Assembly: GCA_951406725.2 (NCBI GenBank)
Contig: OX597818.1
Coordinates: 110,732,001 to 110,796,000 of the forward strand
Source: Octopus vulgaris
Taxonomy: Eukaryota
Length of the DNA stretch: 64,000 bases
Reading direction: 5' to 3'
Positions 6,501 to 59,082 of the stretch are shown piece by piece. Position 1 is the first letter of the stretch, and each line of letters begins with the position of its first letter. Made by a program: the position numbers and the translations under genes. The notes under the pieces were generated by a model, which was not told the DNA's origin, searched no databases, and was given only the letters and a program-made list of their open reading frames with translations.

Positions 6501-7304
6501 CTACAATCCACAAGCCGTGGATGATACTGGAAATCCGCACCGCTCCAAAAGAAAATTTCAACACTTCCTCCGCAGAAATTGTGTATGGTGCCTCTCTTAC
6601 AGTGCCAAGAGAGTTCCTTTTGAATACGACATCAAACCCGGATGTTGAAAGGTACCTCATTCAACTGAGAGACAGCGTGGGTCAGTTGTGCTCTATATTC
6701 CGATGTCAACACACGGTACACCCAGTTCATCCGCACCGAACGAACTCCGGGTGGCGAACTTTTAGCTTGTTCGACGTGACACTCGAAGAAAACTCGTCCA
6801 GTCACCCTACGATGGTCCGTATGAAGTCATACGTCCAAGAGACAAATCATTTCAACTCCTAATTGGCGGATGACAGGACACAGTTTCCATCGATAGGTTG
6901 AAACCGGCCCATCTCGATATTGACAGTCGCATTCAGGTAGCCCAACCACCAAACAGGGTCCGCCCCAGGCAGATCACACCAACCCTTAGTAAAGAACACT
7001 CACCAAAGAACCGAGTAACCACACGCACGAGCAGGACAATTAAAAGGCCTTCCCGTTTCCAATAACAGTCATTTATAATGGGGGTAAGGAGCTATGTAGG
7101 GCAGGATTTATGACAGACGAACTGTAGACAGGAACTTCGCTGCGGGCTAGCTAGGGAGTTGATCAGCAGCGAAGAAGACTTCCGGTAGAGCGGGTTTTGG
7201 AGAACCAGAAGCAACTGGTGATTGTCGCCCCGATGTACTTAAAGGAAAAGATATTTCATTAACAAATTTTCATCTCCAAGTGTTTATTTGTATGTAGCTT
7301 AACA
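3550..7304 (+). mobile_element. Decayed Ty3/Gypsy LTR retrotransposon (CsRN1-like by gag/PBS pattern)
   Basis: PBS-like TGGTGAGCCCGA at ~3598; gag from ATG 3644 (F*P..AEL*F..AEVQF...IT.D..KY.YV); protease LIDTGAEISVIP; RT SPWSSPLH, YRPCGNYRRLN, YLDN; RNase H WRPLAFFSRQL...FDKELLAV; integrase HHCC remnant (HGLSYP...CIPCQQTK); PPT ~7080; 3' LTR candidate 7095-7304 (TG...CA). Confidence 0.9.
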
Positions 7305-13609: not shown

Positions 13610-13690
13610 GTAAGTTATTTTCAGAAATAAATTGTTTCTACCTTTCTTCTAAATACCTGTGTGTAATATAAACTTTCTCTCTCTTTATAG

Positions 13691-14631
13691 GTTTTAAGAA
13701 GTCAACTGATGTGAATAATGTTAGGCAAATTCTTAAAGAAAATGTAAAACAATATACCAAAGTTGTAAACACATTACCAGCAGGAGATAATAAGAATGAT
13801 CTCTCTGGTGCAATGTTTCGACAGATGGCTGCCTCTTGTGGTATACATGTTGAAGACCCAAAATCTTTTTCTGATAGTTTCGATATGCAGCAGCCAGACA
13901 ATGAATTGACTAATGAAATTTTACCTAACAAAATTACCACAGTGACACTTCAAAAAACTAAGAATTCTTATGAGAATAAATTGTTGGATATTGAACCAGA
14001 GATGCAGTCGATGAAGCTGGAATATTCTGCAATTGAAGTTGTTTCGAAAAACTCCATGATGGATGCTTGGAAACCTGAGTGGATGAACAGTGGCCTGTCC
14101 AATAAAGCAAACCCAAGTCCTGATACCCAGTACAACATAATGCCACACCACTCACAAATCAATGGATGTAGCTCAGCATGTCAAAATTCTATAGGTTTTG
14201 AAACTTGCATAGAGAAGGCTAATGCCTTAAAATCAGAAAATGCTGATTGTATAACTGTTGGCCAGTTTGATCTGGTTGGTCAGAACATCTGCTTCCCTGG
14301 AAATAAAGACTATCCCAGGAGAATTACGAATCTACCAGTGGAAATAACTAGTGATGTGACATCCGAACAATTGGAACTAGACTCTTTGTCTTCGAAAATA
14401 AACAGTATGTCTACTCAGACAGAAGTTGTGGAGCCGGTGTACAAAAGTTCAGGACAAACAGTGACTTCCAACAAAGGAAACCAAATAAGTGTTTTGATGA
14501 TGGATGCTGCTGTTAATGTTAATCTCTGTGGATGTGCAGATAAAGGGAAGACTAGCAGTGCCAAAGAAATATCAACACAAACTGAATTGCCCTTCATAAG
14601 CAGTGGACAAGAAAAATCTATAAAGCAGTGG
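13691..14631 (+). CDS. DZIP3/TTC3-like protein, exon 3
   Basis: ctctttatag acceptor, TGG|GTAAGT donor, 941 nt open frame, phase 1 to 0. Confidence 0.85.
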
Positions 14632-14840
14632 GTAAGTAGAAAGTAAATATTTTAAGAGCCAGGTATGGTGGAGAAGAAATTGTTGGAATTTTAAATTATT
14701 GAAATTAAAATACTGAATTTATTGTTGAGCATGTTAATATCTATGTTGAAATTCCACTGTGGTGTTGTGGGGAGGTCATAAAATGTTAAAATATCCCTTG
14801 GTTCTGTTTATTTTCTGACCATTAATGAATTCTATTTCAG

Positions 14841-15765
14841 ATTCCTCCAGCAGACATTGACATAAACAAGCCGTTCATTGCTGATCAGAACTCAAACACT
14901 GGTTTATTTAATGGTTATGGTGACCAATTTTGTGTAAAATCAAATCTTCAGCAGACACCAAAGAGTCAGTTCAGAGATGCTGCAAATTATCCAGAATACA
15001 ATAGCTTTGCAGATGTTCCTATTTTCAATACGCCACCTCAGTCACCTGAAAATATTAATTGCGATGTCTCCTATGCTCGTAACACCTTCTGGAACAACAA
15101 CAACAACCGGCCTACTGAATCTCCTTGCTTCCAGGAACAAAACCTGCAAAATTTGAATGAAGTAAAACTGGATTTTAATCTCTACTGTTTGGTTTTGGAG
15201 AAGTTAAAGCAACAGTATCCAGCTCTAAATAAAGCACCCCAAGAATTACAGCTTCTTGCTAAAACTCAAACTCTCGCTCTTCAGGTTCAGAGATCTCAGA
15301 TGCATTACTCATTTCCTGATGAACCCAGAGCAATCACTAAAACAGTCGGTGCTCCAAAGGAGATGGAAGCCAATAAATTTTTCCATAATCTTTCGACTAC
15401 TGTTTCCTCCGAAAGAGACCTTGATTATGTCACACCTGATGACTCCACAACCAATAATTCAGCCACACGGCGCTATTCTGATACTCCAGACTTTAGGTGT
15501 TTGCTTAACCCACCTTATCGAAAGTTTCAGAATCTGCCATTTTCTCCAAAAGTGGATTATTATTCAAAACCAGTTTTGCCAGAAATTTCTTCTAAGATTT
15601 CTCAGATGGATTGGGGCTCTGTTGGATTCAGTCCCATAAAATATGAAGTAACAGACTCTGAAAAATGCGACGACCTTGATAATCTGAATTCTTCAAATGC
15701 AATTATGAAAAAAGCAGTGGAAAAAAGTACCTGGAATAGCCCTGTAATGTCCCCTTCAGTTATCG
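14841..15765 (+). CDS. DZIP3/TTC3-like protein, exon 4
   Basis: tctatttcag acceptor, G|GTAAGT donor, 925 nt open frame, phase 0 to 1. Confidence 0.85.
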
Positions 15766-16836
15766 GTAAGTTCATTTTTGGGGAACAGTTTATGAATATG
15801 ATTATACTTTGGTCAGAAATTCTTGTTTATTTACTTACAAGCTGGCCGAACCATTGGCACACCAGGGAGAATGCTTGGCATTTTTCCAGCTTTATGAGTT
15901 TAAATTCCACTGAAGTCAACTTTGCCTTTGAATACTGGGGGTCAGTGTAATCAATTTACCCCATTTCCTGAAATTGCTGGCCTTGTGCCAAAATTTGAAA
16001 CCTAGTGATGTACCTTTTTTATTTTTTCTCTGCTAATTTCTATTGCAGAAAGCTCCTTTTTTTTAGCAATCACTGTAAAATGTTATGATAGAGATCTGGT
16101 TGGCCATAGTTGACTGATATCCAGAATTTTCTGAATTACCTTAACTGTTAACCTCTCCAACAGCCTTGCACTGTCATTTACTTGTTTGTCACCGGCCATG
16201 CTGGGGCACTACCCTGAAGTATTTAAGCTGAACTAGTTGACCCTAGCAATTAATTTTTTTTTTAAGCCTGATAATTATTCTATCAGTGTCTCTTGCAGAA
16301 CCACTTAAATTACAGACATAAACACACCAACGCCACTTTTCAAGCAGTGGTGGGAGGCAGACACGAACTGATGAATTGCTTTCAGTTTGTCTACCAAATC
16401 CATTCACAAGGGCTCAAAGATATCGTGTAACACACTTGCCCGCAGTGGGATAGAACCTGAAACAGTGTGGTTGGGAAGCTAACTTCTTGCCACACCTGCA
16501 CCATCACATCATTTCATTTATAAGGATTTGAGGGGTTTAGTTCACTAGTGATCAAAGCGAATAGGTATGCTGATTAAGTGCTATAATTGGTCATCCGTTA
16601 GGTTTCATGATCACAGCCCAGGCTGGAGCTAAGCATCTATATTAGGCTTCAGAGTTGGTAGGTATTTCTCCAATATATTATATATATTGTTTTGTCATTT
16701 GACTGCGGCCATGCTGGAGCACTGCCTTTAGTCGAACAAATCAACCCCAGTACTTATTCTATCGGTCTCTTTTGCCGAACTGCTAAGTTACAAGGATGTT
16801 AACACACCAACATTGGTTGTCAAGCGATGGTGGGGG

Positions 16837-38074: not shown

Positions 38075-38851
38075 TCAGCCGAAAAGGTCATCCAGTTCAT
38101 TTCCAGCAGAGTTTGATGATGGGAAACCATTTTGCAGCTGCTGCTGTCCTGAATTGGCATTAGTGAACTGGTTGTGATTGACAGCAGTCATGTTTGTGTT
38201 GCCGAGTGCCATACCTTGAAAGCCAGGTGCCACCATGGGTGCACTGACTCTCATGCCTTGATTCATCATAACCTGTGGATGTGTCATCATGGCTGGTGGT
38301 TGGTTTAGCATTGTGCCAACATTGCCCCTCATTGCAATGCCTGTGCTGGAACCAGTCGGCATAAAGCCCATGGTGCCAGCTTTCATGCCACTTGTGGTTG
38401 AAGTCTTCTGAGCCATCTGATTTAACGAGGGTTTCATTTGGGATGAAGATGGTGACAAAAGATTGTCAAAAGCTGAAAGGTCCACAGATTTGTTAGCAGC
38501 AGGCTTTGACTGGTTCAGGGGTACAATGGGGTTAGTTCTCTGCATAGGCATGCCTCCACCACCACCACCTGACAAGGAAGAAGCACCAAAGGATGAGCAA
38601 GCCATATTTGACTGAGCCATGCTCCAGGAGTTGTTTAATGGACCAGAATGTTGGAGTTGGTTTAGGTTGTTGTTGAGTAGTGTTGAGGTAAGGTCTTTGG
38701 GTTTATGGTAACTTGAGCTTTGACTACCACAATTAGCACTCTTTTCATGATCAGGGTTTGTTTTAGGGACAAGCATACTTTGTTTCTTGTAGATGCTTTG
38801 TTGTTCCTGCTCTCGTGCCAACCTCTGTTTCTCTTCCATGCTTAGACTCAC
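38075..38851 (-). CDS. SCYL2: SCY1-like protein 2 (CVAK104), last coding exon
   Basis: taacag|GTG acceptor; SLSMEEKQRLAREQEQ, KPKDLTSTL, DLSAFDNL, NELDDLFG* match the SCYL2 C-terminal motifs. Confidence 0.93.
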   Translation of the reverse strand: MSLSMEEKQRLAREQEQQSIYKKQSMLVPKTNPDHEKSANCGSQSSSYHKPKDLTSTLLNNNLNQLQHSGPLNNSWSMAQSNMACSSFGASSLSGGGGGGMPMQRTNPIVPLNQSKPAANKSVDLSAFDNLLSPSSSQMKPSLNQMAQKTSTTSGMKAGTMGFMPTGSSTGIAMRGNVGTMLNQPPAMMTHPQVMMNQGMRVSAPMVAPGFQGMALGNTNMTAVNHNQFTNANSGQQQLQNGFPSSNSAGNELDDLFG

Positions 38852-38934
38852 CTGTTAAATATAAAGAAATATATTGTAATTTGCTTCTTTATTTCCTGCG
38901 GCATTATTACAAAATATGCAGAACCTTATCTAAC

Positions 38935-39180
38935 CTGGAGTAAAGATGGTTTGCCAACATAACATGCAGTCCTGGTTTAGGACGAATGTTGCTGTAATTT
39001 AAGCCCCAGGAGACTTTGTCTCCAGCTGGCTATACAACACAATCTGTGTCCTTATATTTTTGAACAAGGGAATCCAGCAACCCCACTCAGCTCAAAACCT
39101 GTTATGTTGGCAAACAATCTTTACTCCAAAGTACTGTGGCTGAGTATCTCTCATTGTGAGATTTACAAATAGTAATTTTC
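38935..39180. mobile_element. Internally deleted copy of the foldback MITE at 44151-44630
   Basis: GGAGTAAAGATGGTTTGCCAACATAAC ... GTTATGTTGGCAAACAATCTTTACTCC plus the same ~50-nt downstream extension. Confidence 0.75.
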
Positions 39181-42250: not shown

Positions 42251-44150
42251 TTAGCCTTCAGAATCTTTGCAAGGACAGATCTACATGCTTCATTGCACAG
42301 ACAAGGAGTTGCACCAGAAGTAATCCTTTCTTTTCAAAACCTAGAGATAAGCCTTTTCTGAATTGTTAAGGGTCAGTGTATTTTATCCTTGATTGGATTT
42401 AGAGACGGACAAAATGCTGACGCGTTTTGTCTGTGTTTATGTTCAGGGGTTCAAGTTCCACTGTGGCCAACTTTATCTTTCACCCTTCCAAGGTCAATAA
42501 AACAAGTACCATTCGAATACTGAGGGGGATCAATGTAATCGACTTGCCCCCACCCCCACCCTCCCCTGAAATTGCTGGCCTTGTCCAAAAATTTGAAACC
42601 AGTATTTGTTGATGAAAATACATCAACCATTGTTATGCAGAATATTTTAATCCCCATAAAATCAAGAAGATTGGGTCCCAACGAGCAGCAGACCACTTCC
42701 ATTCAATTTTGTACAACATAACTTAGTTGCTGTCCACAAAATAAAGATACAACTTATTATTTTCTAATCCGAAGTCAACAAGAATAAGGAAGGGATATAT
42801 AGCATGGCACCTTGGGCAAGTGTCTTCTACTATAGCCTCAGGCTGACCAAAGCCTTGTGAGTGGATTTGGTAGATGAAACTGAAAGAAGCCCATCATATA
42901 TATATGTGTGTGTGTGTATGTTTGTGTGTCTGTGTTTGTCCCCCCACAACATCACTTGATAACCAATGCTGGTGTGTTTACATCCCTGTAACTTAGCGGT
43001 TCAAGGCTTACAAAGAATAAGTCCTGGGGTCGATTTGCTCAACTAAAGCCGGTGCTCCAGCATGGCTGCAGTCAAAAGACTGAAACAAGTAAAAGAATAA
43101 ACAGATATAAATTACTGTTGATATCCTTTGTCTTCTGCAACAGCTCAACCTTAAGTGAGGGAAAGGAATTTGATTATTTACCCAGATCCAAAATTTTTGA
43201 CATTTTTCAATCCTAATGTCAAACCAAACACATATAATAACGATAATGCATCATCATCGATTAACGTCCGTTTTCCATGCTGGCATGGGTTGGACGGTTT
43301 GACTGGGGAATGGCGAACCAGATGGCTGCACCAGGCTCCAATCTGATCTGGCAAGGTTTCTACAGCTGGATGCCCTTCCTAACGCCAACCACTCTGAGAG
43401 TGTAGTGGGTGCATTTTTACATGCCACCAGAGGGGGCTGGCATCGACTTGTTTTGGCAATGAAAATTTTCAAGAGGATATTCAAAGCATTTTCATTGCCC
43501 CTTAAAAATTTTAGAGGTTGCAAGCATACCCCTTGTTTCCAAGCCAACAAACTCAAAACTCCATAAATGTTAGATTCGCTTTATATGTCAAAAACTCTCA
43601 TTCAGAAACATTGTGAATGAGTGAAAAGACTTTTGGCAAGAAAGTCCTGTGGAATGTTAATGAGATCGAGTAGAGGGGTTTGTTTGGTAAATTCAAATAG
43701 ACAACACCCAAGAATCGCTAAGTATGAATGAGAAGATCAACAACTTGTGATATCTTCCATTAAAGAGTCGAAAAATGTTTCACAAATTATGAAATTTTTC
43801 ATGGCTCAACAAACGAATAAGTCATTTCATGAAAACAACTTCAACATGAAGAACAATCAGTTAGGAAAAAGAATATAAAAGGAACAAAGCATTAAGAGAA
43901 TTAAAGAAACATGCAAGAAAATCGACAATTTTATGCTTTTTTATAATAATATGTCTGAGGCAATTCTGCTGTTTGCTAACTCTCTAAGATAATCATTGTA
44001 AACACAAAAGGAGTCACCTTAGTTCTGTTGTATCCAATATTCATGCAGGGATTAACCAAAGACAACAGCAGATAATATACTGATGCAAGTGTGGTGATGG
44101 TCATATTTAACAGAGCTCATGCAAATAACAAGATGGTGGAAACAGATAAA

Positions 44151-44578
44151 ACTTTGGAGTAAAGATTGTTTGCCAACATTACATGGCAGCCTTGGTTTAG
44201 AACGAATGGAGACATTGTCTCCAGCTGGCTATACGACACGATCTGTATCCTTAGATTTTTGAACAAGGGAATCCAGCACCCCTACTCAGCTCAAAACAAT
44301 ATCTGTGTATTGCGATTTCTGGGTTATTTCCCTACATCAGCACAGAATAATTTGGTAGCACCACTTCTAGGCAAACAATTATTCTGTGCTGAGGAAGGGA
44401 AATAACCCAGAAATTGCGATACATAGATCTTGTTTTGAGCTGAGTGGGGGTGCTAGATTACCTTGTTCGAAATTATAAGGACACAGATCGTGTTGTATAG
44501 CCAGCTGGAGACAAAGTCTCCATTCGTTCTAAACCAAGGCTGCCATGTAATGTTGGCAAACAATCTTTACTCTAAAGT
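44151..44578. mobile_element. Foldback (palindromic) MITE with ~200-bp arms
   Basis: ACTTTGGAGTAAAGATTGTTTGCCAACATTAC...CAGCACAGAATAATT / AATTATTCTGTGCTG...GTAATGTTGGCAAACAATCTTTACTCTAAAGT with a ~20-nt loop. Confidence 0.9.
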
Positions 44579-44894
44579 ATTGTTGCTGCATATCTCTCGT
44601 TGTGAGATTTAAAGATAGTAATTTACTAAGAAAACTATCTTTGACTGAAATTAGCAAGACATCAAAACTAACCAACACAGAACTAACTTTGAATGTAGAC
44701 CAACGTTTGCTTCCATCCATTAAATGACTTACATTGTGCCACAGTCCCAATTCACCAATGAATTGCAGACCACAAGAATACACAACAGTTGAGACTTCAT
44801 TTTCTTAAGAGTTTGCAATTTAAGATATTTTGCCTTGTACGTTATTTACATTGTCTACATTTGACGGATATATGTCCTCATCTTGTTTGCTGTT

Positions 44895-44938
44895 AACACG
44901 TTTCAGCTGATATACCCTCCAGATGTCATCAGGTGTCT
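44895..44938 (-). ncRNA. Minimal type I hammerhead-like motif (degenerate)
   Basis: Minus strand GACAC-CTGATGA-catCTGgagggtatatCAGct-GAAA-CGTGTT; catalytic boxes intact, 3 nt missing at the cleavage triplet relative to the right-arm sequence. Confidence 0.6.
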
Positions 44939-45463
44939 TAGGGAAATTTCAAACCTGGGTTCTCACTCCTAAGGTATTTTTCAATGCTATTATTATAATT
45001 ATTATTGAGTGAGAGAGTAGTGCATGCCATCAAAGTGGCACTGGGGTAAAATATACAAAGCCCAATATACCCATCATGACTACCCGTCTGATAAGGGTAC
45101 ACCAGGCACATGCATCACAATGATATGTGCGCGACATGGTGATCTCATATCAAGATAAACAGTACATGACCTTGCAGGTGGGGCCCAGTTAGAATTTTCT
45201 TCTGGTTGAGTAACCCATCCCGCTCAAAAGGTCCCTGAATAAAGGTTGTTTAAGGATGTTGAACAAAACACCCATGTTTCCAGAGGTGAATTATTCAAAC
45301 CCCAAAGAATCCCTCTCAACACACGGCTATGATGCTCCCCCACTACTTCTGCTCGTGATCAGAGATGCACATATCGTCAGCCACTAAGGGACATGCTCAA
45401 CTGGTTAAGGTCAAACAACTGACAAGCAAATCTGTGGTATTGAGCAGAACATTTGCTTCAGGT

Positions 45464-45532
45464 CACTGCCTGGAATCAAACTCGGAATCTTGGGGTTAGT
45501 AGCCCATGCTCTTAACCACTACGCCATATGCC
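45464..45532 (-). other. tRNA-derived head (Pol III A/B boxes), not a functional tRNA
   Basis: A box TGGCGTAGTGG, anticodon-like loop CTACTAA, B box GTTTGATTCC; acceptor stem does not pair. Confidence 0.7.
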
Positions 45533-48500
45533 CGTGGGCATATCAGCTGAAATATTGTGTTAACAACAAACAAGATGAAGACAAATATCCGTCAAGTGTA
45601 AATAATGTACATAATTCCTCGTCTCTTAAATATAGAACTTAATTATATTTTGCCTTGTCTAAAATTTTTTCTTGTTCAACATGAAATCCCATTCTTGTGG
45701 TAAACTCCCAAACTACAAATTGTTTAGCTTCCAAGGACATTTTAGCTGTGACCACCCTACCTTTTTGTTAGCCAAGACTGCATTGTCTAGTATTTTCCTC
45801 TTTTTAAAGACGATATAGGGTGTGGTATGAATGAGATTTAAATGCTACTTTTAGCAAATCAATTAAACAGCATACAGTCTCATCAGATGGAAGTTCAGTG
45901 TTTGGCCCAAAAGACAGGATACAAACTAATTAGTCTTCAGCTGATAATTGTTTCACTCTCAACACAAAATGTGAGCTTTAAGAGACGATATTTTGTGGTT
46001 ACATGAATGAGATGCAAGCACAGATTGCTAAACCAAATCGTAGCTGTTAACAATTTAAGACAGAAGAACAGTTAGCAGACTGGACCAAATGCTTGGCACC
46101 ATTTCATCCGTCTTCACATTCTCGGTTCAAATTCTGCCAAGACCAGCTTTACGTTTTGGGGGTCAGTAAAATAAAAATCATTTGACCCCTTGGGTCAATG
46201 TAATCATTGCAGTCCTTGTGCCAAAAATGTTATGTAGATAACTGGAGGCTGCATAACGTGATGACATTTGAAACAAATTGAACCAGAACGTGTGGGAGTC
46301 CATTTGAGAAGTCATACAAGATTTTGGTGTTGAAGATTATAAGGAGGTCCGGTGCGTGTGTAAGAGTGTACAATCTGTTTGTGTGACCATGTCAATGTGC
46401 AGGGATCGTTTTAACTTGGGAAATGCATTTTTAGCACTTGTCATACGTGAGTTCTGCCGTGTATTATTCCCCCACACGTTTTCACTGTCACACACTCACC
46501 ACTGACGAATACCTTTCAAAACAATCTGTCAGGAAAATAACCAAGAAGGAAACAGAAAGACGACTACAAGAAGCAAACGGAGACATTCTTTCGTTTACAT
46601 CAACAATGGTAACTTGAAAGTGTCGGGGGAGAAGGAGTGATAGCAATAGAACAACATGCAGCCAACATGAACAACAACACCAAAGAAGCAGTCACATGGA
46701 GATAAAAAAAATACTAGAATTACAAATCTCTCACACACACACAATGCACTGAAGGGTTAAATGCTGTGAGGTGTGCAGGCTTACCTTACTGTTATCCCTT
46801 TCGCTCTGGTCAACCCAAGAAAATGAGAAAACAGCATTTGACAAGATACAATTGAGCAGCTACACGTAACATTTAAGAGCTTAATATTTGCATAAAAGAG
46901 AACCGCAAAGAATCAAATAAACATTTAGCTCTGGCCCTTCCCTGCCCTATTAGGGGTAACCAACTATCTCCTCTGTAGTAAAACAACTATCTCTCAGCCA
47001 CTCTGTTATACTCTAACCTCTCACCTGGGTCACAGTTTTGGTTCCACTCCCTCTCTCAGCTGTCTTGCAATCTGCTGGCTGACCCCACTGGTGCCACATA
47101 AAAAGCACCCAGTACACTCTGTAAAGTGGTTGGTGTTAGGAAAGGCATCCAGCCATAGAAACCATACCAAAGCAGGCAGATGGGGCTTGGTGCAGCCCTC
47201 CAGCTCCAGTCAAACTGTCCAACCCATACCAGCACAGAAAACAGATGATAAAGGATGGTGAGGCTTTATACTGGAGACAGGTTGTATTTGTTAATTATCA
47301 ATTCTTTGAAAATGTGAAACTCAATAACGATATACCAACACACAGTTTCAATTGCCATCAACATCATTTAGCTCTGCTTTTCTATAAGGGCATGAGTTGG
47401 AGGAGTCAAGAGAAAGTTGGCCAGTTTTTGTCCAAAGACAGGTCAGCCACCATGACTCACTCTTACACTCACAACATATAACATGTGATGTTTTATGCAG
47501 AGCCATACAGCAAAAACAAAACAAAAAGAAACGTTCTAACATAACTGAATTAAAGGACTCAATACATTTAGATAGAGTGGATAGAAAATTTAATATTATA
47601 AAGAAGACTTTGACTGCAAACAATATGTATATTTTTACTTTGTTTCAGTCATTAGACTGTGGCCATGCTGGGGCACCACTATTTTTTTTTTATTCTGTTG
47701 GTTCCTTTTGCTGAACTGCTAAATTACAGGTATGTAAACACACCAACACTGGTTGTCAAGCGGTGGTGGGTGACAAATAGACACAAAGGCACACATACAC
47801 ACATACACACATGATAGGCTTCTTTCAGTTTCCATCTACTAAGTCCACTCACAAGACCTCGGTTGGCCCAAGGTTATAGTAGAAGACAAGGTGCCATGCA
47901 GTGGAACTGAACCCAGAACCATGTCACAGTTATGTAACCTACACTGCTAGAAAATATATTTGATTGGTTTCTCTTTAATGGAGAATACTAAAAACGAAAT
48001 CCCTGTTCAGAATGAACCAGAAGAATAATGAGAAAAACAAGAATGTTGATTTAAAAGTCATGGATTATTTTCATAATTCTCACTCAACTGCATCAAATTA
48101 ACCCATTTTATCCCAATATCTATGAGTACATATTATTTAGCACAGAACAGGTTATTATCAACTGACAGGTTTAAATTGTGTGAAACACAGAGGGAGAGAG
48201 CTGTTCAATTCAGTTTTGGTAGAAAACCAGATAATTGTAGTCATTTAAGTTTGTTTTTTGGTTGCAAACTTGAAATAATGAAAATCACAAAAACATGTAA
48301 AGTCTTATCCATTTGTTGCCAATCTATTTAATAAACATTTATTTTGCTCTTATGCCATGCAGTAAAAGCAATGGAATTGTTCAGAGTTACAAACATTTTG
48401 TAGTCATTTTCCGATTTTGGGTCCCACATCATCTCAAGGTCTACAAATGTAGACGCTTCAAGAAAATAGGAACCCCTTTCATTCAATGAAGTTGAAATTT

Positions 48501-48873
48501 CACCAATAACTATGTTTGATTAAAACAGATCTGAGTTCATAATTTCGTAGGTTTTGCTACATTTCTTCTATCCCTTTCTTCTATAAAGACACCTGTGCCA
48601 GCACCACATTTGAGAACCGTGTTCCACATAAAAAACCTGTGCTGGTGCCAAAACACCCAGAATATTCTGTGGAGTGGTTGGCATTAAAAAGGGCATCCAG
48701 TAACAAAAACTATGCCAAAACAGACGACTGGAGCCTGGGGCAGTCCTCCACTTTGCCAGCTCTTGTCAAACTCTCCAACCCATGCCAGCATAGAAAACAG
48801 ATGTGAAACAAGAGAAATTTTACACATTTTTGTAAATCTGTATCCACTTTCCTATTAACCATTTAGCTGTTAA

Positions 48874-49095
48874 CCCTTTCATTACAGTATTTATTTTGAG
48901 ATGCTCTGTGTTTCTTTCAATTAATTTTAAATATAACAAAGAATTTAGTAAAATAGCTTAGTTATCATTAAGCTAGTGCTAGGAACATAAATTGTGATTA
49001 AGGTTTGGTGGAAGATTTTAATTCAAATCTTATGAAAACAAAACATTTGTATGACAGAGCCAGAGCTGGTTTCAACCGGGTTGGTAATGAAGGAG
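48874..49095. mobile_element. piggyBac-type MITE nested in an older TTAA-type MITE
   Basis: TTAA|CCCTTTCATTAC ... GTAATGAAGGAG|TTAA; close copy at 59602-59823; host remnant TTAACCATTTAGC ... GAATGCTAAAAGG (~48855-49305). Confidence 0.8.
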
Positions 49096-50699
49096 TTAAG
49101 CCAGCTGTATCCAGCCCAAATATTTCTCATTCTATGCTCAAACAGGCCAGATCTGACTGCTCACACCTGACCTACAATGTCATTCTAAAAATAAATAATT
49201 ATATGATTGAAGACTCAAAGCTATGGGATAATGCCTGATTAATTCTAAACAATGTGAATAAATAAGCAGAACTTTTGGCAGAGGAATCTGAATGCTAAAA
49301 GGCTTGAATAGTAATGTGATAATTTACTAATTATTTATTATCAAATATTTAAAAAATATGTATTTAACTTTTACCTGATTCATTAGACTGTGGCCATGCT
49401 GGGGTACTGCCTTGAAGAAGTTTTTTTGTCAATTGATTCAACCCCAGTAATTTTTTTTTTTTAATCTGGAACTTATTTTATCAATCAGTTTTATACACAC
49501 ACACACACACACACGACAGTTTCCGTCTTTGGTCAACCTGAAACTATGGTAGAAAATGCTTGCCGAAAGTGCCAAGCAGTAGGACTGAACCCAGAACCAT
49601 ATGGTTGGGAAGCGAGCTTCTTACCACAGAGCCACGCCTGTGCTTAGGCTACCAAAAGCACATCGACCTTTTATTATTGTATCGAGAATGAGTATTGGTG
49701 AGAGACAGGCGCACACACACATATGCTGCACTTTGCTTCAAAGAAATAAAAAATATATCAGTGCAGGACACTGAAATAAACAATTCTTATCTTCTAAATA
49801 TCCTCCCCTTTTTTAACTTGGTTCAAAGAGATCTAATAGCCGTAAAACCTCTCCGTGACTTTCCTCTAGTAATTAATTTAAATAACGGCTAATTCCATTT
49901 AAATGGTTTTTATTTTCCAAACATTTCAGTTAGAGTTATCTCCCTTGATTGTTTTCAGATTTTAAAGCCACTTCTGTGGAAGTTTTTCTCTATAAATTGC
50001 ATGGATAATCTCAATTAATTGGAAGTCTTGCAACACGTTTCAGTGAGAATCTTCCCTGTGTGATTTGGCAGGGCGAGTAATCACAGGGAGCCAACTTCGT
50101 TTGTTCATAAGATGAAGGCCCGAGGGTCGCTGACCAAGCAGATCTGGCCAAAAAGGCATTCCTGCCGTGATTATTTTAATTTTTTTGTTTTGGTTACATT
50201 ATGCAATGACTCTTTTAAAACAATGGTATGATTTGAGGGAGATTTGGCTACAATTTCTCACAGGTGAGTGCTTTTATCAAGTTGGAGACATTAGGTTATC
50301 TCCCTTGAACAAAACCTTTCCCATAAGGCCAGACCCCAACAAGCTGGCAGAATCGTCAGCGCATCGGACAAAGTGCCTGACAGCATTTCTTTCAGTTCTG
50401 TAGCCGAGTTTAACTTCGTCTTTCATCTTTTCAGGATCAATGAAATAAGGACCAGTTGAATACAGAGATCAATGCAATTGATTTACCCCTCTCCAGCCCT
50501 GTAAGGCTTTTCATCCAGATGTCCACTCCAATACAAAACCTACAGCTTGCCAGTCACTATGGTTATCTTAGCCCACTGACCCACTGTGGTCAGACCCCCA
50601 AGTCTAAAGAGTGGGGTCAGACTGCACAGACTTACTTTCGCTATAAAACTACTAAACGCAGATAGGAAGCAAAATTCTGCTGCAATGGAGAACAGACAA

Positions 50700-51780
50700 A
50701 AACAACAGGTTCTGGACGGAGCAAGCTAAATGCTATACTTGTCTGGACAAACCAAGGCTGACCCAAGGCAGTCTGGAGTTGGCTTTATGATAAACACCAC
50801 CATTGGCTCTTGGCTTGAGAGCCTGCTCATCGGCCACTCTGACCGTATTGTGTCTCTACAGCTCCCTCACAGGACAACCAGTATACAACTACCATTAGCA
50901 TTTAGGCTCGAACCCTTCAGGCTGATCCAGCTACAAAGGAATTGTTCAATAGTGAACTGAGATCCCTCCTCCAAAAGACCAGCAGTAGGGACAGGATCAT
51001 CATTGAGGGTGATTTCAAAGGTCAGCAAGAACAACACCATATTGCCTGGAGTACTTGGTCAACTTATATTGGCAGCTCCAACAATGGTGAATGACTGCTG
51101 CTTGTGAATTCTGCACTAAGCATGGTCTCATCATCACCAAGGCTCAGTTTCAGCAGGAGAAACAGTTGAAGGGATTCTGGAGAAAACCTTATTCAAAACA
51201 CTGGTACCTGCTGGACAACATCCTGGTGTGGCAGACAGATACAAAGGACGTGCACCAGACCTGAGTGGACATGCCAAGTGCAGACAGCTACAGATGACAG
51301 ATCATCATCATCGTTTAATGTCCATTTTCCGTGCTAGCACAGGCTGGACGGTTCAACCGGGATCTGGGAAGCCAGGAGGCTGCACCAGGCTCCAGTCTGA
51401 TCTGGCAGTGTTTCTACAGAGTGATACCCTTCCTAACGCCAACCACCCCGTGAGTGTAGTGGGTGCTTTTTACGTGCCACCGACACAGGTGCCAGGGGAT
51501 GCTGGCAGTGGCCATGATCGGTTGGTGCTTTTTACATGCCACTGGCACGGTTCATGCAAAAGTCCATCAAGCCTGTTGGGAAGAAGAAAGGTTATCTAAC
51601 GAAGAAACTGCAAATCAACAGACTTCCACGACTGTAGGAAGAGTTTCAGTCAAGCTTGGACAGTAAGCTTTTGAACATCAAAGTAGCTGAAAGAGACCCA
51701 GAGAAGCTCTGGCAAAACTTGAAGACTACAATAAAGGAACCAACAGCCGATGGTGTGGGCTTCTCATTAAGAACACCCTG
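50700..51780 (+). mobile_element. Decayed LINE AP-endonuclease region interrupted by an RTE 3'-end copy (51302-51560)
   Basis: SGVGFMI, IIIEGDF, WRKPYSKHWYLLDNILV (APE motifs) in shifting frames. Confidence 0.7.
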
Positions 51781-52052
51781 ACCTTGTATTCTGTGTTATA
51801 AATGAATGATTACTTGTAGCAAAGAGAACCAAAGAAAGAATACAAAGAGAAGAGACGAGGTCAGGTTCTTATAACAATGTTGTGGTTGACAGACAAAATG
51901 CCCAAAGGATCAGGACACAGAGTCAGTGATATGCTGTGTGACAGGAGGGTCTAATACATCCCATGACAATAGAAAAGGTGTTGGCATTCAAAATACGTAT
52001 ATATTAAGAGAAGTAAATTTTGTCAGGATCTATGGATCAAGGGGTCACTTAC

Positions 52053-52134
52053 CAATGTATTGCTTGAAGGAGAAATCAATTCGGGCAGCAGATTTTTCTC
52101 ATCAGGAACATTCACCTTGCTAATGTCTATTGTC
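52053..52134 (-). CDS. SCYL2: SCYL2 exon
   Basis: ttgttttttag acceptor, TTG|GTAAGT donor, 82 nt, phase 2 to 0; EEQ-KTIDISK aligns with vertebrate QQKSLDI. Confidence 0.85.
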
Positions 52135-52223
52135 CTAAAAAACAAAGTAGGAACCAGTATAAATAGTGATCAGAACAGAAACAGCTCTCTCTCTCACTCT
52201 CTCTTTCTCTCTCACCACATATA

Positions 52224-53514
52224 CGAGGGACGTTCAATAAGTAATGCCTCTGACCCACTTGCAGTTGTTTGATCTAGCTAAAATTTTGCATGTGCAATCA
52301 TTTATATCTCTATAGAGTAAGTGGCAAATTACAGCTCTGAATTAATTGTGGTTTCTGATTTACAGGTGTTTGAACCGAGTCAAGTGTGAAATGGAGCCTG
52401 TTGAGTGTCGAGCAGTGATACGGTTTTTGTATTTGAAAGGACGCACACCAAGGGAGACTTTTGATGAAATGAAAGTAACTTATGGTGATGATGCCCCATC
52501 ATATGACCTTGTAAAACGCTGGCATCGTGAATTCAAACATGGTTGGAACTCTGTGGAAACAGCTCCCAGATCTGGTCACCCCCTTCTGCCATTGATGAGG
52601 CATCTGTCCGTCAAGTTGAGGCTGCCATTTTGGAAGATCGACGCATAATTATTCGCGAAATAGCCCATGAGGTCAAGATTAGTACCGGGTCTGTGGAAAC
52701 TATCATTCATGACCATTTGCATATGCAAAAGGTGTCTGCCAGATGGATTCCCAGGTTGCTCACGCCTTTCCAGAAGCAAGAACGCGTCGAGTGCTCGAGG
52801 GTGAATTTGGAGATGTGCCAAGAAGATGAGTCAAAATTTTTCAAAAGACTGATTACACAGGATGAAACCTGGGTCCATCACGATGATCCAGAGACCAAAG
52901 CCCAGTCAATGCAGTGGAAGCACCGTGACTCACCCCCTCCAAAGAAGGCAAGGGTGCAGCCCTCCGCTGGCAAGGTCATGCTCACAGTCTTCTGGGACCA
53001 GGACGGAGTAGTGATGACAGATTTCCTGGCAAAGGGTACCACAATTGCAGGAGCCTATTATGCTTCACTTTTGAGGAAATTAAGAGAAGTTATCAAAATC
53101 AAGAGGCGGGGCAAGATCAGCAAAGGCATCCTCCTCCTGCAGGACAACGCTCCGGTCCACAACTCGCTTGTCACCAGATCAGAAGCACAGGCGTATGGCT
53201 ATGAACTCCTCCCCATCCCCCCTACTTTCCTGACCTTGCACCCTCTGATTTTCACCTCTTCCCAATCATGAAGTTGTTTTTGAAAGGAAAGCGTTTCCCA
53301 GATGATGCAGCCTTGATTTCTGAAGTCACGTTGAGGTTGGAGGACCAAGCTGGGTTCTTCTACAAAAACGGTGTCCAGAGCCGCATCAAACGATGGGAGA
53401 AATGCATAACTCTGGGTGGTTCCTATGTAGAAAAAGACTAATAACTGTGCCAAGTTTTGTTGCTCTACTTCTATGGGAAGTGGGTCAGAGGCATTACTTA
53501 TTGAACGCCCCTCG
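52224..53514 (+). mobile_element. Full-length mariner (DD34D) transposon
   Basis: ~37-bp TIRs CGAGGGACGTTCAATAAGTAATGCCTCTGACCCACTT / AAGTGGGTCAGAGGCATTACTTATTGAACGCCCCTCG; TA TSD; ~1.29 kb. Confidence 0.96.
52391..53441 (+). pseudogene. Mariner transposase with two frameshifts
   Basis: MEPVECRAVIRFL, WIPRLL, ITQDETW, LLQDNAPVH, PDLAPSDFHLF, GGSYVEKD*; frameshifts near 52580 and 53215. Confidence 0.92.
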
Positions 53515-53622
53515 TATGTGTGTAAATTGTATATATGGGTGTGTATTCATCGTCATTTAACGTCCGCTTTCCATGCTGGCATGGGTTGGACTATATACAC
53601 ATATATGTATGAATATGGGTTG

Positions 53623-53676
<54 letters not shown>

Positions 53677-53689
53677 CAATTTAGCGAGG

Positions 53690-54567
53690 TGTAGACCTCT
53701 GGAGGTATGCTGTGACTGCGAAGACCTGGCAAATAAAGTGAGTCCCCAGCTGTAACTTACACCAGTGTCGCATAACCAGCCCACTCAAAAGTACCTTGGA
53801 TCGTAGGGTGAAATGCCGTGCTTGAGGAGAAAACAGATTAATGTGGAGTCTTTATCAGCAGAAGTGTCCCCTCCAATGAGGAGTGATGGTCTCTTACAAA
53901 GAGGGTCTTCACTAACTTTGTTTCTGCAAAGTCTGTAGAGGTGCATATTTAACAAGAACCCAAAAGGCTCTGCTACAATTACAAAGACAACAGGGCTGGC
54001 TGGTTGCACAATGAAGAGCACAAAGTCAGTGTGTCTTCTGTTCCTGGCAGTCATTTTGTAGCCGTTATAAAACAGTGAGCGAACAACACTTTCAGTGATG
54101 GATAGATTTCAAAATCAAATGGAAATTGCAGTTGTGGCCGATGCCAGTATCACCTGATTGGCTCTTGTGCTAGTGGCACACAATAAGCACCATCCATGCG
54201 TGGGTCATTGCTTGTGTCACCTTACTGGGTCCCTGTACTTGTGACATATAAAAACCATCATCCGAACGTTGATCGATGCCAGCCCTCTCCTCCCGATTGG
54301 TTCCTGTGCCGGTAGCACATAAAAAAGCACCATCCGAACCTGGCCGATGCCAATACCACTTGACTGATTCCTGTACTGGTAGCACATAAAAAGCACCCAC
54401 TACACTATCGGAGTGGTTGGCATTAGGGAGGGCATCCAGCTGTAGAAACATTGCCAGATCAGATTGGAACAGCCTCTTGGCTAGCCAGTCCCCAGTCAAA
54501 CTGTCCAACCCATGCCAGCATGGAAAGCGGACGTTAAGCGATGACGATGATGATGATAATGATGATG
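53690..54567 (+). mobile_element. RTE LINE 3'-UTR copy (representative of a very abundant family)
   Basis: Ends GAGTGGTTGGCATTAGG.AGGGCATCCAGCTGTAGAAAC...CCATGCCAGCATGGAAAGCGGACGTTAA(GAT)n, the same end as the LINE at 28243. Others near 27334, 39925-40270, 40895, 43250, 47090, 48590, 51302, 55060, 60200-60840, 62195-62700, 63810. Confidence 0.8.
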
Positions 54568-55248
54568 GCAGCTTTTGTTGTTTGAAGGAATTGGGTGAAC
54601 ATAGCAAGGATGATAGTATCAGCCACAAGGTCAGCTGTCTCAGGCAGGTCACAGATGAAATACATTCGATGCCAGACAGAACAGAATTGGTGAACATCTA
54701 ATTAAGTGACCAGGGAGTTTGGGGCACGAGGAAGGTTGCAGTGCCATCAGAAGACGTGGAGTGTATTGTGTGTGATTGGGTAAAAATTAATCACAGGACT
54801 CAATTCAGAAACGAGAAAGAGATCAAGAATGCTTGGTGTGGAAGATTAGTAATCTGCTAACGAGGAGATTAATTAATGAATTAGCACCTTGGTAAGGTGC
54901 TAATAAGGAGATTCATTAATGAATTACTGCCTTGGTAATGTACTAATGAGGAGACTGATTAATGAATTACCATCTTGGTAATGCTTGTCTGTGGGTGAGG
55001 GCTCTGCCCTGTCAATCTTCTCCCCCCAACCACATTTCATCCCCTAACACTCATAAAGTACTGGTGCTGATGCCATATAAAAGGCACCTAGTCACACTCT
55101 ATAAAGTGGTTCATGTTAGGGAGGGCATCCAGCTGTAGAAACCATGCCAGGACAGGCAATGGGACCTGGTGCAGCTACCCCACAGTTGGCCAGCTCCTGT
55201 CAAACCAGCCAGCCAATGCCAGCATGAACGAGGGAAGTTAAATAATAA

Positions 55249-56008
55249 AATACATTATTTACATTTGATACATATTTGTCCTCATCTTTGTTGTTAACAC
55301 GTTTCAGCTGATATACTCTCCAGCCTTCTTCAGGTATCTTGGGGAAATTTCGAACCTGGGTTCTCATTCCTAAAGTATTTTCAATGTTATTATTATTATT
55401 ATTATTGAGTGAGAGAGCAGTTCATGCCATCAAGGTGACACTGGGGTAAAATATACGAAGCCCAATATACCCATCATGACTACCCGTCTGATAAAGGTAC
55501 ACCAGGCACATGCATCACAACCATATGTGCGCGACATGGTGATCTCATATCAAGATAAACAGCACATGACCTTGCAGGTGGGGCCCAGTTAGAATTTTCT
55601 TCAGGTTGAGTAGCCCATCCCGCTCAAACGGTCTCTGAATAAGGGTTGTTTAAGGATGTTGAAAGAACCACCCATGTTTCCAGAGGCGAACTATTCAAAC
55701 CCCAAAGAATCCCTCTCAACACATGGCTATGATGCTCCCCCACTACTTCTGCTTGTGATCAGAGATGCACATATCGTCAGCCACTAAGGGACATGCTCAA
55801 CTGGTTAAGGTCAAACAACTGACAAGCAAATCTGTGGTATTGAGCAGAATATTTGCTGTAGCCCATCTTTTATACCAAGACAAAACAATGTACATGATAA
55901 CACTTCCAATCAGTTAAGATCAGAAGCCATGAGAGCCACTGCCTGGTACTGCATCAGGGCATTTATTATTTATTATTATTATTATTATTATTCAGGGGAT
56001 CATATTAT

Positions 56009-56061
<53 letters not shown>

Positions 56062-56214
56062 CATCGGAAAAAACCTTAGGTATGAGAAACCAGGTTCGAA
56101 GACTGGAGGGTATATCAGCCGAAACGTTGTGTTAACAACAAACAAGATGAGGACAAATATCCGTCAAAAGTAAATAATGTAAATAATTCCTCATCTCTTA
56201 ATTATAGAACTGTA
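55249..56214 (-). mobile_element. Non-autonomous composite retroelement, copy 2 (inverted pLTR-like arms, hammerhead motif)
   Basis: 11-bp TSD TTAAATAATAA (55238-48, 56215-25); inserted in the tail of an RTE 3' end; same arms and core as copy 1. Confidence 0.8.
55296..55339 (-). ncRNA. Minimal type I hammerhead-like motif (degenerate)
   Basis: Minus strand GATAC-CTGAAGA-A-GGCTG-gagagtatat-CAGCT-GAAA-CGTGTT; CUGANGA, stem II and GAAA present. Confidence 0.6.
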
Positions 56215-56674
56215 TTAAATAATAATGTTGATGGTGATGATGATGATGAATCAGTCCTCAAGCTCTGTACCAGCTGCATTGGTAAAGAATAACCTCAAGA
56301 ACCAGGAAAAGTTATTGACTTTAAAATGACCGAGAATGATGAGAAGAGAGAGAGAGAGAGAAAGAGAGAGAGGGGGAGAGGTAAAGTGAGAGAGATGTTT
56401 TGAATAGAGGAAAGAGAGAAAGAAAATTTGTTGGACGCCTACTGGCAGCAGATGGAGCAAGGAGAATGGTAAAGATAGCAGAAGAATGTAGAGGAATGAG
56501 GAAGCAATCTTGAAGCGAGAATACTTGCCAAGTGAAGATGGGTGATAATAGACACACAATGAAGTTAGAATATGATCCCAGGCATTGGTGAGGCATCGGG
56601 GAAGGAATTGTGTCTCGGAAAAAAAGAATTAATTAGGACCAATTAACAAAAAGCTATCCGTATTAATTACTTAC

Positions 56675-56775: not shown

Positions 56776-56933
56776 CTGCAACCAGAGCAAAAATAACAGA
56801 CATCACACGGCTTTTCCTGCCTTTTCTTACTTCTACCAATACTAATATTCCTTACTACTACTACTGTTACTACTACTACTACTACTACTACTGTTACAAC
56901 ACAATCGACCAGATAAGTCATCGTCTATTAATC

Positions 56934-59082
56934 TCTCAACTGTGAAATGATATTAAATGAGTGACTCAACACTAACCACTCAACTGTGAAGTGAGACTAG
57001 ATGAGTGACTCGACACTAACCACTCAACTGTGAAGTGAGACTAGACGAGTGACTCGACACTCGCTACCCAACTCTGAAGTGAGCCTAGATGAGTGACTCG
57101 ATAGTAACCACTCAACTGTGAAGTGAGGCTAGATGAGTGACTCGACAGAAACCACTCACCTGTGAAGTGAGACCAGATGAGTGACTCGACATCAACCACT
57201 CACCTGTGAAGTGAGACTAGATAAGTGACTCAACATCAACCACTCACCTGTGAAGCGAGACTAGATTAGTGACTCGACAGTAACCACTCAAATGTGAAGT
57301 GAGACTAGATGAGTGACTGGACAGTAACCACTCACCTGTGAAGTGAGACTAGATGAGTGACTTGACACTCACAACTCAACTGTGAAGTGATAGTAGATGA
57401 GTGACTCGACACTCACTATTCACCTGTGAAGCGAGACTAGATGAGTGACTCGACAGTAACCACTCAACTGTCAAGTGAGACTAGATGAGTGACTTGACAC
57501 TCAACTGTGAAGTGAGGCTAGATGAGTGACTCGACAGTAACCACTCACCTGTGAAGTGAGACTAGATGAGTGACTCGACATCAACTACTCACCAGTGAAG
57601 CGAGACTAGATGAAATAATCGACATCAACCACTCACCTGTGAAGCGAGACTAGATGAGTGACTCAACACTAACCACTCAACTGTGAAGTGAGACTGGATG
57701 AGTGGCTCGACACTCACCACTCAACTGTGAAGTGAGCCTAGATGAGTGACTCGACAGTAACCACTCAACTGTGAAGTGAGACTAGATGAGTGACTCGACA
57801 GTAACCACTCAACTGTGAAAGTGAGACTAGATGAGTGACTCAACACTCACCACTCAACTGTGAAGTGAGACTAGATGAGTGACTCAACAGTAACCACTCA
57901 ACTGTGAAGTAAGACTAGATGAGTGACTTAATACTAACCACTCAACTGTGAAGTGAGACTAAATGAGTGACTCAACAGTAAACCACTCAACTGTGAAGTG
58001 AGACTAGATGAGCAACTCGACATCAACCACTCACCAGTGAAGTGAGACTAGATGAGTGACTCGACACTCACCACTCAACTGTGAAGTGAGACTAGATGAG
58101 TGACTCAACACTCGCTACTCAACTCTGAAGTGAGCCTAGATGAGTGACTCGACAGTAACCACTCAACTGTGAAAGTGAGACTAGATGAGTGACTCGACAG
58201 TAACTACTCACCTGTGAAGTGAGACTAGATGAGTGACTCAACACTCACCACTCAACTGTGAAGTGAGCCTAGATGAGTGTCTCGATAGTAACCACTCAAC
58301 TGTGAAGTGAGGCTAGATGAGTGACTCGACAGTAACCACTCACCTGTGAAGTGAGACTAGGTGAGTGACTCAACAGTAAACCACTCAACTGTGAAGTGAG
58401 ACTAGATGAGCAACTCGACATCAACCACTCACCAGTGAAGTGAGACTAGACGAGTGACCCGACACTCACCACTCAACTGTGAAGTGAGACTAGACGAGTG
58501 ACTCAACACTCGCTACTCAACTCTGAAGTGAACCTAGATGAGTGACTCGATAGTAACCACTCACCTGTGAAGCGAGACTAGGTGAGTGACTCGACAGAAA
58601 CCACTCAACCTGTGAAGTGAGACTAGATGAGTGACTCGACATCAACCACTCACCTGTGAAGTGAGACTAGATGAGTGACTCGACATCAACCACTCACCTG
58701 TGAAGCGAGATTAGATGAGTGACTCGACAGTAACCACTCAACTGTAAAGTGAGACTACATGAGTGGCTTGACACTCACCACTCAACTGTGAAGTGAGACA
58801 AGACAAGTGACTCGATAGTAACCACTCACCTGTGAAGCGAGACTAGGTGAGTGACTCAACACTAACTACTCAACTGTGAAGTGAGACTAGATGAGTGACT
58901 CGACATCAACCACTCACCTGTGAAGTGAGACTAGACGAGTGACTCGACACTCACCACTCAACTGTGAAGTGAGACTAGATGAGTGACTCGACACTCGCTA
59001 CTCAACTCTGAAGGGAGGCTAGATGAGTGACTCGACAGTAACCACTCAACTGTGAAGTGAGACTAGACGAGTGACTCAACAC
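56934..59082. repeat. 44-bp minisatellite, ~49 copies, in a SCYL2 intron
   Basis: Consensus CCACTCA(A/C)CTGTGAAGTGAGACTAGATGAGTGACTCGACA(GTAA/CTCA/TCAA/CTAA). Confidence 0.97.

Follow-up and report, generated by a model that had tools for sequence, protein, structure and literature searches.

Penelope/Poseidon terminal repeats with a tRNA-derived head, a candidate Pol III promoter, in the genome of Octopus vulgaris

Introduction

Short interspersed elements (SINEs) derived from tRNA, among them schistosome SMalpha and octopus OR1/OR2, begin with a tRNA head that carries A and B boxes and have their 3′ end in common with an autonomous retroelement. To our knowledge, promoters are known for very few Penelope elements. 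Here we analyse two copies of a repeat in a 64,000-nucleotide (nt) stretch of the Octopus vulgaris genome (contig OX597818.1, positions 110,732,001 to 110,796,000 of the forward strand; hereafter the window, with coordinates counted from its first letter). We consider it probable that these copies are inverted pairs of pseudo-long terminal repeats (pLTRs) of a Penelope/Poseidon element, that a younger, unrelated element sits in their TAA tract, and that the tRNA-derived head of the pLTR acts as an RNA polymerase III (Pol III) promoter.

Among described systems, PAc, the Poseidon element of Anolis carolinensis, offers the fullest comparison (PMC11167929). As far as the accessible text of its description goes, it has in common with the octopus element a reverse transcriptase (RT) with no linker zinc finger and with a C-terminal GIY-YIG-type domain, putative in the octopus element, a pLTR that overlaps the start of the open reading frame (ORF) with a minimal hammerhead in the first codons, and a tail on one end facing an inverted, 5′-truncated partner at AT-rich targets. 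According to the same text, cutting and extension take place on both strands of the target, reverse transcription begins at two internal sites bounding the tail, the start of the ORF lies within the reach of the hammerhead, and hammerhead mutants insert normally (PMC11167929). The octopus pLTR differs in that it begins with a tRNA-derived, A/B-box head followed by (TAA)n, at which 5′ ends pile up; no tRNA head was found in the available portions of the descriptions of PAc, Penelope or Naiad/Chlamys.

For a Pol III internal promoter captured in a terminal repeat, putative here, the nearest analogue is provided by the Cassandra terminal-repeat retrotransposons in miniature of plants, which in the accessible account have a 5S rRNA promoter and true LTRs and are non-coding, whereas the octopus element is an ORF-bearing Penelope with a tRNA head and a pLTR (PMC10853983). 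Animal non-LTR retrozymes, to judge from the available parts of two reports, resemble the short octopus units in being non-coding, derived from the pLTRs of Penelope-like elements (PLEs) and equipped with a type I hammerhead, and they form head-to-tail tandem repeats giving circular RNA (10.64898/2026.07.22.740005; PMC7761336). Unlike these, the octopus units are dispersed inverted pairs with target-site duplications (TSDs) and a tRNA head, and nothing in them points to processing at the cleavage site. Neither a tRNA-headed pLTR nor a Penelope-mobilised tRNA SINE was met in the accessible literature searched, which does not cover subscription journals, Repbase Reports or Dfam, and the family itself may already be catalogued in Repbase or Dfam.

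Results

Two inverted pairs in the window

Both copies are bounded by exact TSDs, of 14 bp for copy 1 (44825–44838 and 45645–45658) and 11 bp for copy 2 (55238–55248 and 56215–56225). Their four arms align with each other as inverted pairs, and a long ORF is absent from either copy; in these respects a preliminary description of the DNA, made from the letters alone, was accurate.

Read on the minus strand, copy 1 comprises a tail-less pLTR arm (44842–44986, arm positions 3–150), whose decayed minimal hammerhead (44895–44937) has a 3-nt deletion at the cleavage triplet; a short (TAA)n tract, placed from the sequence, that joins this arm to a nested element (44987–45009); the nested element itself, which is independent, TAA-associated and non-coding and lacks about its first 100 nt (45010–45457); and a tRNA-derived head with tRNA-Arg(ACG) as its best match (45457–45533). 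The A and B boxes announced by the preliminary description lie within the head, at 45516–45526 and 45473–45481, the latter with one change from the consensus. A palindrome at the 5′ end of the head (45526–45543), which is a native 5-bp hairpin at −7 to +5 lengthened by fold-back, forms the junction to an inverted, 5′-truncated arm on the plus strand (45536–45639, positions 72–175), with the Penelope tail of about 25–30 nt at approximately 45616–45639.

Copy 2 has the same plan, with a tail-less arm (55251–55388, minus strand, positions 1–145) containing a decayed hammerhead (55296–55338) with the same 3-nt deletion, and a young, full-length nested TAA-associated element (55410–55962, minus strand). 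Its head is lost, with a few head bases left between two opposed (TAA)n tracts (55963–56058), and the inverted arm with tail follows on the plus strand (56060–56212, positions 1–176), where a 23-nt deletion takes out the 5′ strand of stem I together with CUGAUGA.

The arms belong to a Penelope/Poseidon element

An RT-motif pattern for Penelope/Poseidon occurs at 129 places in the genome searched (2.8 Gb, 227 contigs) and at none in the control. Thirty such loci include 16 with the head downstream on the same strand, 5 more with an arm piece only, and 2 that are chance matches. In 28/30 ORF-end loci the head begins about 25 nt after the ORF stop. At the N-terminal end, 15/20 loci (the first 20 of 75 places, L195 skipped) have the arm immediately before the ORF. 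At L176 the arm is in frame with the ORF start, and both there and at L195/L264 the same pLTR sequence stands before and after the ORF. The hammerhead motif falls within the first codons of this ORF: the arm-encoded peptide aligns with the N terminus of an 847-residue homologue (P0005, E 3e-20) over a stretch in which the two halves of the hammerhead core code for TPD(D/E)G and PKRCV. This N-terminal extension is present in only one of the 47 RT homologues, of 560–885 residues, found at E ≤ 1e-30.

The ORF matches Pfam RVT_1 (E 4e-9) and has the RT motifs DKG, GLPK, MGSP and YVDD in that order. Its decayed C-terminal piece has no match to Pfam GIY-YIG and aligns with the Pfam-positive domain of a 781-residue PLE, with Y, C, C, Y, R and H conserved. 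The CX2-5CxxC linker zinc finger is absent from homologues P0001/P0005 and from the frame at L201, and the lack of this finger between RT and endonuclease marks Penelope/Poseidon in the accessible part of PMC8557442. All ORF copies observed are decayed, with a median identity of 91% to the majority. Head and arm are linked through (TAA)n at 29/30 loci retrieved with the head as query and 24/30 loci taken in genome order, as the preliminary description had anticipated for other copies. Given the adjacency of ORF stop and head, the in-frame arm and the RT and linker features, head, (TAA)n and the 176-nt arm together form the pLTR. The element is accordingly assigned to Penelope/Poseidon by its RT, linker, pLTR, tail and hammerhead, a placement by features, and the call for Penelope machinery in the preliminary description is borne out by an autonomous, ORF-bearing Penelope/Poseidon with the same arm in this genome. 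Sequencing runs labelled as five organisms contain roughly half or more of the words sampled from a head–arm unit.

The family of the 781-residue PLE, reached by a Pfam GIY-YIG search and then tblastn, was considered as partner and rejected: apart from stray flank hits, nothing in its 45 loci or in 8 longer stretches is shared with the arm. It is young, (TA)n-flanked and about 5.3 kb long, with many intact ORFs (L121, L136–L140, L144–L173), a Neptune-like linker zinc finger, an upstream ORF that overlaps the main one and a pLTR of about 460–510 nt in which a U3-A8 hammerhead variant was seen by eye. Separately, the end of the Penelope/Poseidon ORF has been amplified as a tandem repeat of about 150 nt at G000:C2:16238358-16239140.

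A younger element nested in the TAA tract

The core common to both window copies, about 94% identical, had been described as part of the same unit. The similarity is real, but the core belongs to another element: searched against the genome, it has 1198 candidate matches, of which the top 40 are 98–100% identical, and among 29 core loci other than those of the window the arm is present at 3 and TAA tracts flank the core on both sides at 26. Copies often stand in tandem or beside LINE-like (long interspersed element), TAA-associated 3′ ends. The core family is about 550 nt long and non-coding, with a median divergence of 1.7% and a fixed 5′ end, and it has neither an A/B box match nor an ORF. 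Divergence from its majority is 0.9% for the core of copy 2 and 3.8% for that of copy 1, and the arms surrounding them carry 5–9% substitutions. The core is a separate, younger element and not part of the arm-bearing unit. As it is mostly armless elsewhere and younger than the arms around it, it most likely entered the TAA tract of each pLTR after the pLTR had been inserted. Nested elements that target TAA in this manner give rise to false composite families in annotation.

A minimal hammerhead, likely dispensable for insertion

The majority of 101 arm pieces carries CUGAUGA, one unpaired A, a 5-bp stem II, GAAA, ACGU and a GUU triplet, with a 5-bp stem I of four Watson–Crick pairs and one G–U, and with the palindromic ACGU in the place of stem III. 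This is the motif that the preliminary description had obtained by merging the four window arms, and its reading as a minimal, dimer-type hammerhead agrees with the form described in PMC4209133, as far as that source was accessible; a descriptor drawn up after it was matched by 0/20,000 dinucleotide shuffles. In 81 arms long enough to span it, the catalytic core survives in 43 and the complete motif in 15; these 15 are exact intact copies among the retrieved loci, and all four window arms are damaged, as had been noted. The 3-nt deletion in the two tail-less window arms (44895–44902, 55296–55303) recurs in 7/81 arms and likely arises through short-repeat slippage.

A search with Rfam models, in line with the hammerhead-model check named in the preliminary description, gave nothing at gathering score in the window, and on four loci there was no hammerhead, tRNA, hepatitis delta virus (HDV) or twister match at E ≤ 10. 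CUGAUGA and GAAA are kept in the majority, and stem covariation, which had been expected with them, is not above shuffles in 49 copies, a test of little power because the copies are about 93% alike, with CpG decay behind most of their differences. The lower substitution rate in the motif core (2.3%, against 3.6% at other non-CpG sites) was set aside, as post-insertion changes are neutral and the sample is query-biased.

Insertion follows the pattern reported for the anole element. Of 59 inverted arm pairs, 55 have a tail, of about 25–35 nt, on one arm and not the other, while both arms are tailed in 2 pairs and neither in another 2; TSDs of at least 9 nt, about 76% A+T, flank 32 of the 59, against 2/59 in a shifted control. 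In RNA reads, too, loose ends pile up in these two classes, tailed and tail-less. Only 1/198 arm 5′ ends lies at the hammerhead cleavage site, so cleaved RNA is not the main template, and hammerhead cleavage is likely to be dispensable for making these copies. The ribozyme processing proposed by the preliminary description thus finds no support in arm ends, stem covariation or arrangement: the tabulated architectures are all solo or inverted, with none of the head-to-tail arrays typical of retrozymes.

The tRNA-derived head and the pile of 5′ ends

In the family, the A and B boxes of the head match the consensus. When compared with 25 tRNA genes of this genome covering 9 anticodon types, the Arg(ACG) genes among them included deliberately, the head is closest to tRNA-Arg(ACG), at about 60% identity and with a modest margin over tRNA-Thr; one older head copy retains the Arg anticodon loop. 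ARAGORN called a tRNA in 0/12 head loci, and Rfam found no tRNA, hammerhead, HDV or twister match at E ≤ 5 in the one head searched. Elsewhere in the genome, 23 tRNA-Arg(ACG) motif matches lie on one strand at G000:C2:211887729-211907120, many about 206 nt apart, two of them confirmed as tRNA genes.

Exact patterns for the arm, the head and the ORF end (about 45 nt upstream) occur 6054, 1790 and 448 times, respectively, although the patterns differ in degeneracy. Because the best-hit head search was biased towards fold-back copies, we re-measured 5′ ends on pattern hits in genome order. Of 30 such loci, 26 start at −7 to +8 relative to the tRNA, 4 run into the ORF and none starts between −8 and −33; without two duplicate pairs the count is 24/28. 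Truncations in the ORF region, which span 65–1558 nt with a median of 356, predict about 7% at −7 to +8. The 5′ ends comprise both fold-back junctions at the native 5-bp hairpin (−4.6 kcal/mol), whose signature is present in at least 7/26 solo 5′ ends, and direct joins. Furthermore, the two ORF-bearing copies with a 5′ pLTR that reaches the head (L195/L264 and L310) both begin there. From this pile we infer that the 5′ end of the element RNA lies at the head. Head copies with no downstream arm (L214, L215, L207 and L233) were also seen and could be either remnants or free retrocopies of the tRNA head.

Short copies and the ORF-bearing element

A Pol III start, for short copies and full element alike, is suggested by the boxes and the position of the 5′ ends, in agreement with the Pol III drive proposed in the preliminary description. 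That Pol III transcription extends through the ORF is a conjecture we hold less firmly than the RNA 5′ end at the head, and it draws on the absence of T-runs (T≥4) from the 705-codon majority ORF, where synonymous shuffling predicts 2.6 of them (P 0.043) and a third-position model 4.1 (P 0.010); the unrelated 781-residue ORF has 9.

The short units have the A/B-box head and the 5′ ends fixed at the head (26/30) that characterize tRNA SINEs. They differ in that the partner is a PLE and the whole short unit, head included, is part of this partner, and no separate lineage is evident among the copies. Indeed, no substitution is diagnostic between 36 solo and 51 ORF-linked units, variants being common to both; arm position 61 is A in 5/29 solo and 1/37 ORF-linked units, and divergence is 5.7% for short or solo copies and 6.5% for ORF-linked ones. 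A G66A variant, tried as a subfamily marker, was dropped as it had been enriched by the query used. The separate non-autonomous SINE of the preliminary description, borrowing a Penelope end, therefore gives way to short copies of the Penelope itself, because the head is part of the pLTR of the ORF-bearing element and the short copies show no diagnostic differences.

Discussion

Under the reading we prefer, inverted Penelope/Poseidon pLTR pairs with a Pol III promoter in their head, transcription would begin 6–7 nt upstream of the tRNA-like stretch. The Penelope protein would bind the arm and nick both strands of an AT-rich target, and reverse transcription primed at two internal sites 25–30 nt apart would leave tailed and tail-less arms in opposite orientation. 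Because the arm also sits at the 5′ end of the element RNA, priming there could produce a head–arm copy of about 290 nt that resembles a SINE, retains the promoter and may be re-copied in trans; with priming internal, a Pol III transcript could therefore serve as template whichever downstream T-run had ended it. Fold-back of the cDNA, from which the inverted copy would start, is likely made possible by the small hairpin at the 5′ end of the RNA. A promoter role of the head would account for the thousands of short SINE-like copies in the genome. In a bolder version, the terminal repeat of a coding Penelope acquired a promoter from tRNA-Arg, Pol III transcribes the element over its whole length, with an ORF purged of T-run terminators, and internal priming at the upstream repeat makes thousands of SINE-like units out of this RNA, so that element and 'SINE' form a single transcription unit; we put this forward tentatively, as possible but short of probable.

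Several observations weigh against these views. Four models were tried for the absence of T-runs, which is not significant under Markov models (P 0.10–0.22), and the ORF majority was built from 56 pieces with a depth of 3–8 at the 5′ end. Only two full 5′ ends of ORF-bearing copies were observed. Three unstranded RNA-seq runs from one study have no pile of starts at the head, where depth is not above that of the adjacent ORF, and on balance speak neither for nor against the model. The start site itself is blurred because the fold-back hairpin recreates positions −7 to −3. The ORF would, moreover, have to be translated from an uncapped Pol III RNA. As to the nested element, the 3-nt deletion common to both tail-less window arms would fit a core-bearing common ancestor, a less likely alternative, though this deletion recurs (7/81 arms).

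The evidence also has to be set against other explanations. The short head–arm units might form a self-propagating SINE lineage, with solo copies relying on Pol III and on mobilisation in trans, and the ORF-bearing element on Pol II, through a promoter of its own or host read-through. The ORF is absent from 26/30 head copies, the A and B boxes are intact, solo units hold all that is needed for transcription and priming, and they are slightly younger than ORF-linked ones (5.7% against 6.5%); yet the head belongs to the ORF-bearing element itself, the avoidance of T-runs continues through the ORF, and position 61 is the sole hint of a difference between the 36 solo and 51 ORF-linked units, so this account appears unlikely, though not negligible. 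The head might instead be a passenger, a tRNA SINE head with its TAA tail inserted in the pLTR, with the 5′ pile left by an RT stop, fold-back or a Pol II start. Head and (TAA)n do resemble a simple SINE, and the fold-back signature in at least 7/26 solo ends and the lack of a head-specific signal in RNA-seq fit such an origin. The internal promoter in the pLTR of D. virilis Penelope is reportedly a Pol II promoter, and its presence there would offer a precedent. That this pLTR has an internal promoter is stated in the accessible part of PMC8557442. Nevertheless, the hairpin is weak at −4.6 kcal/mol, many ends at −7 to +8 are direct joins with no fold-back, the upstream edge at −7 is sharp, and the boxes stand at consensus despite a lost tRNA cloverleaf (ARAGORN, 0/12 loci), all of which makes a passenger head quite unlikely.

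We regard as highly improbable a retrozyme-like element, with RNA cut by the hammerhead dimer, circularised and reverse transcribed and with the core as its body. The full catalytic core, a palindromic ACGU that could supply stem III in trans and the derivation of animal retrozymes from PLE pLTRs, as given in the available part of 10.64898/2026.07.22.740005, would suit it. However, the core is independent (arm at 3/29 other loci) and younger (0.9% and 3.8%) than the arms around it (5–9%), 1/198 arm 5′ ends falls at the cleavage site, no head-to-tail arrays occur among the tabulated architectures, and the hammerhead dimer, at −22.7 kcal/mol, compares poorly with −31.2 for the best cofold. Hammerhead mutants, moreover, had no effect on insertion of the anole element in the accessible text of PMC11167929.

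The family offers a short, testable case of a candidate Pol III promoter within a pLTR. It also illustrates a route by which an autonomous element could give rise to SINE-like units directly, since with internal priming the RNA needs no defined 3′ end; annotation will class such units as SINEs. Should a Pol III RNA be what the ORF is read from, one has to ask how it is translated without a cap, and the enigmatic pLTR hammerhead gains a role to test.

Other features of the window

Just upstream of copy 1, a near-perfect palindrome that resembles a miniature inverted-repeat transposable element (44148–44581) has 205-nt arms, 92% identical, and a 24-nt spacer, with a related piece at 39009–39098. 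Between the two copies lies a mariner-type transposase remnant (52531–53271, plus strand; Transposase_1, E 7e-24), and beyond copy 2 an array of units of about 44 nt with microsatellite content (56808–59000). Broken protease/RT/RNase H-like frames at 4243–6862 (plus strand) have motifs that we take to be those of an LTR retrotransposon. Long open frames at 13672–14646 and 14829–15950 (plus strand) and at 38075–38854 (minus strand) have no Pfam match and resemble host exons.

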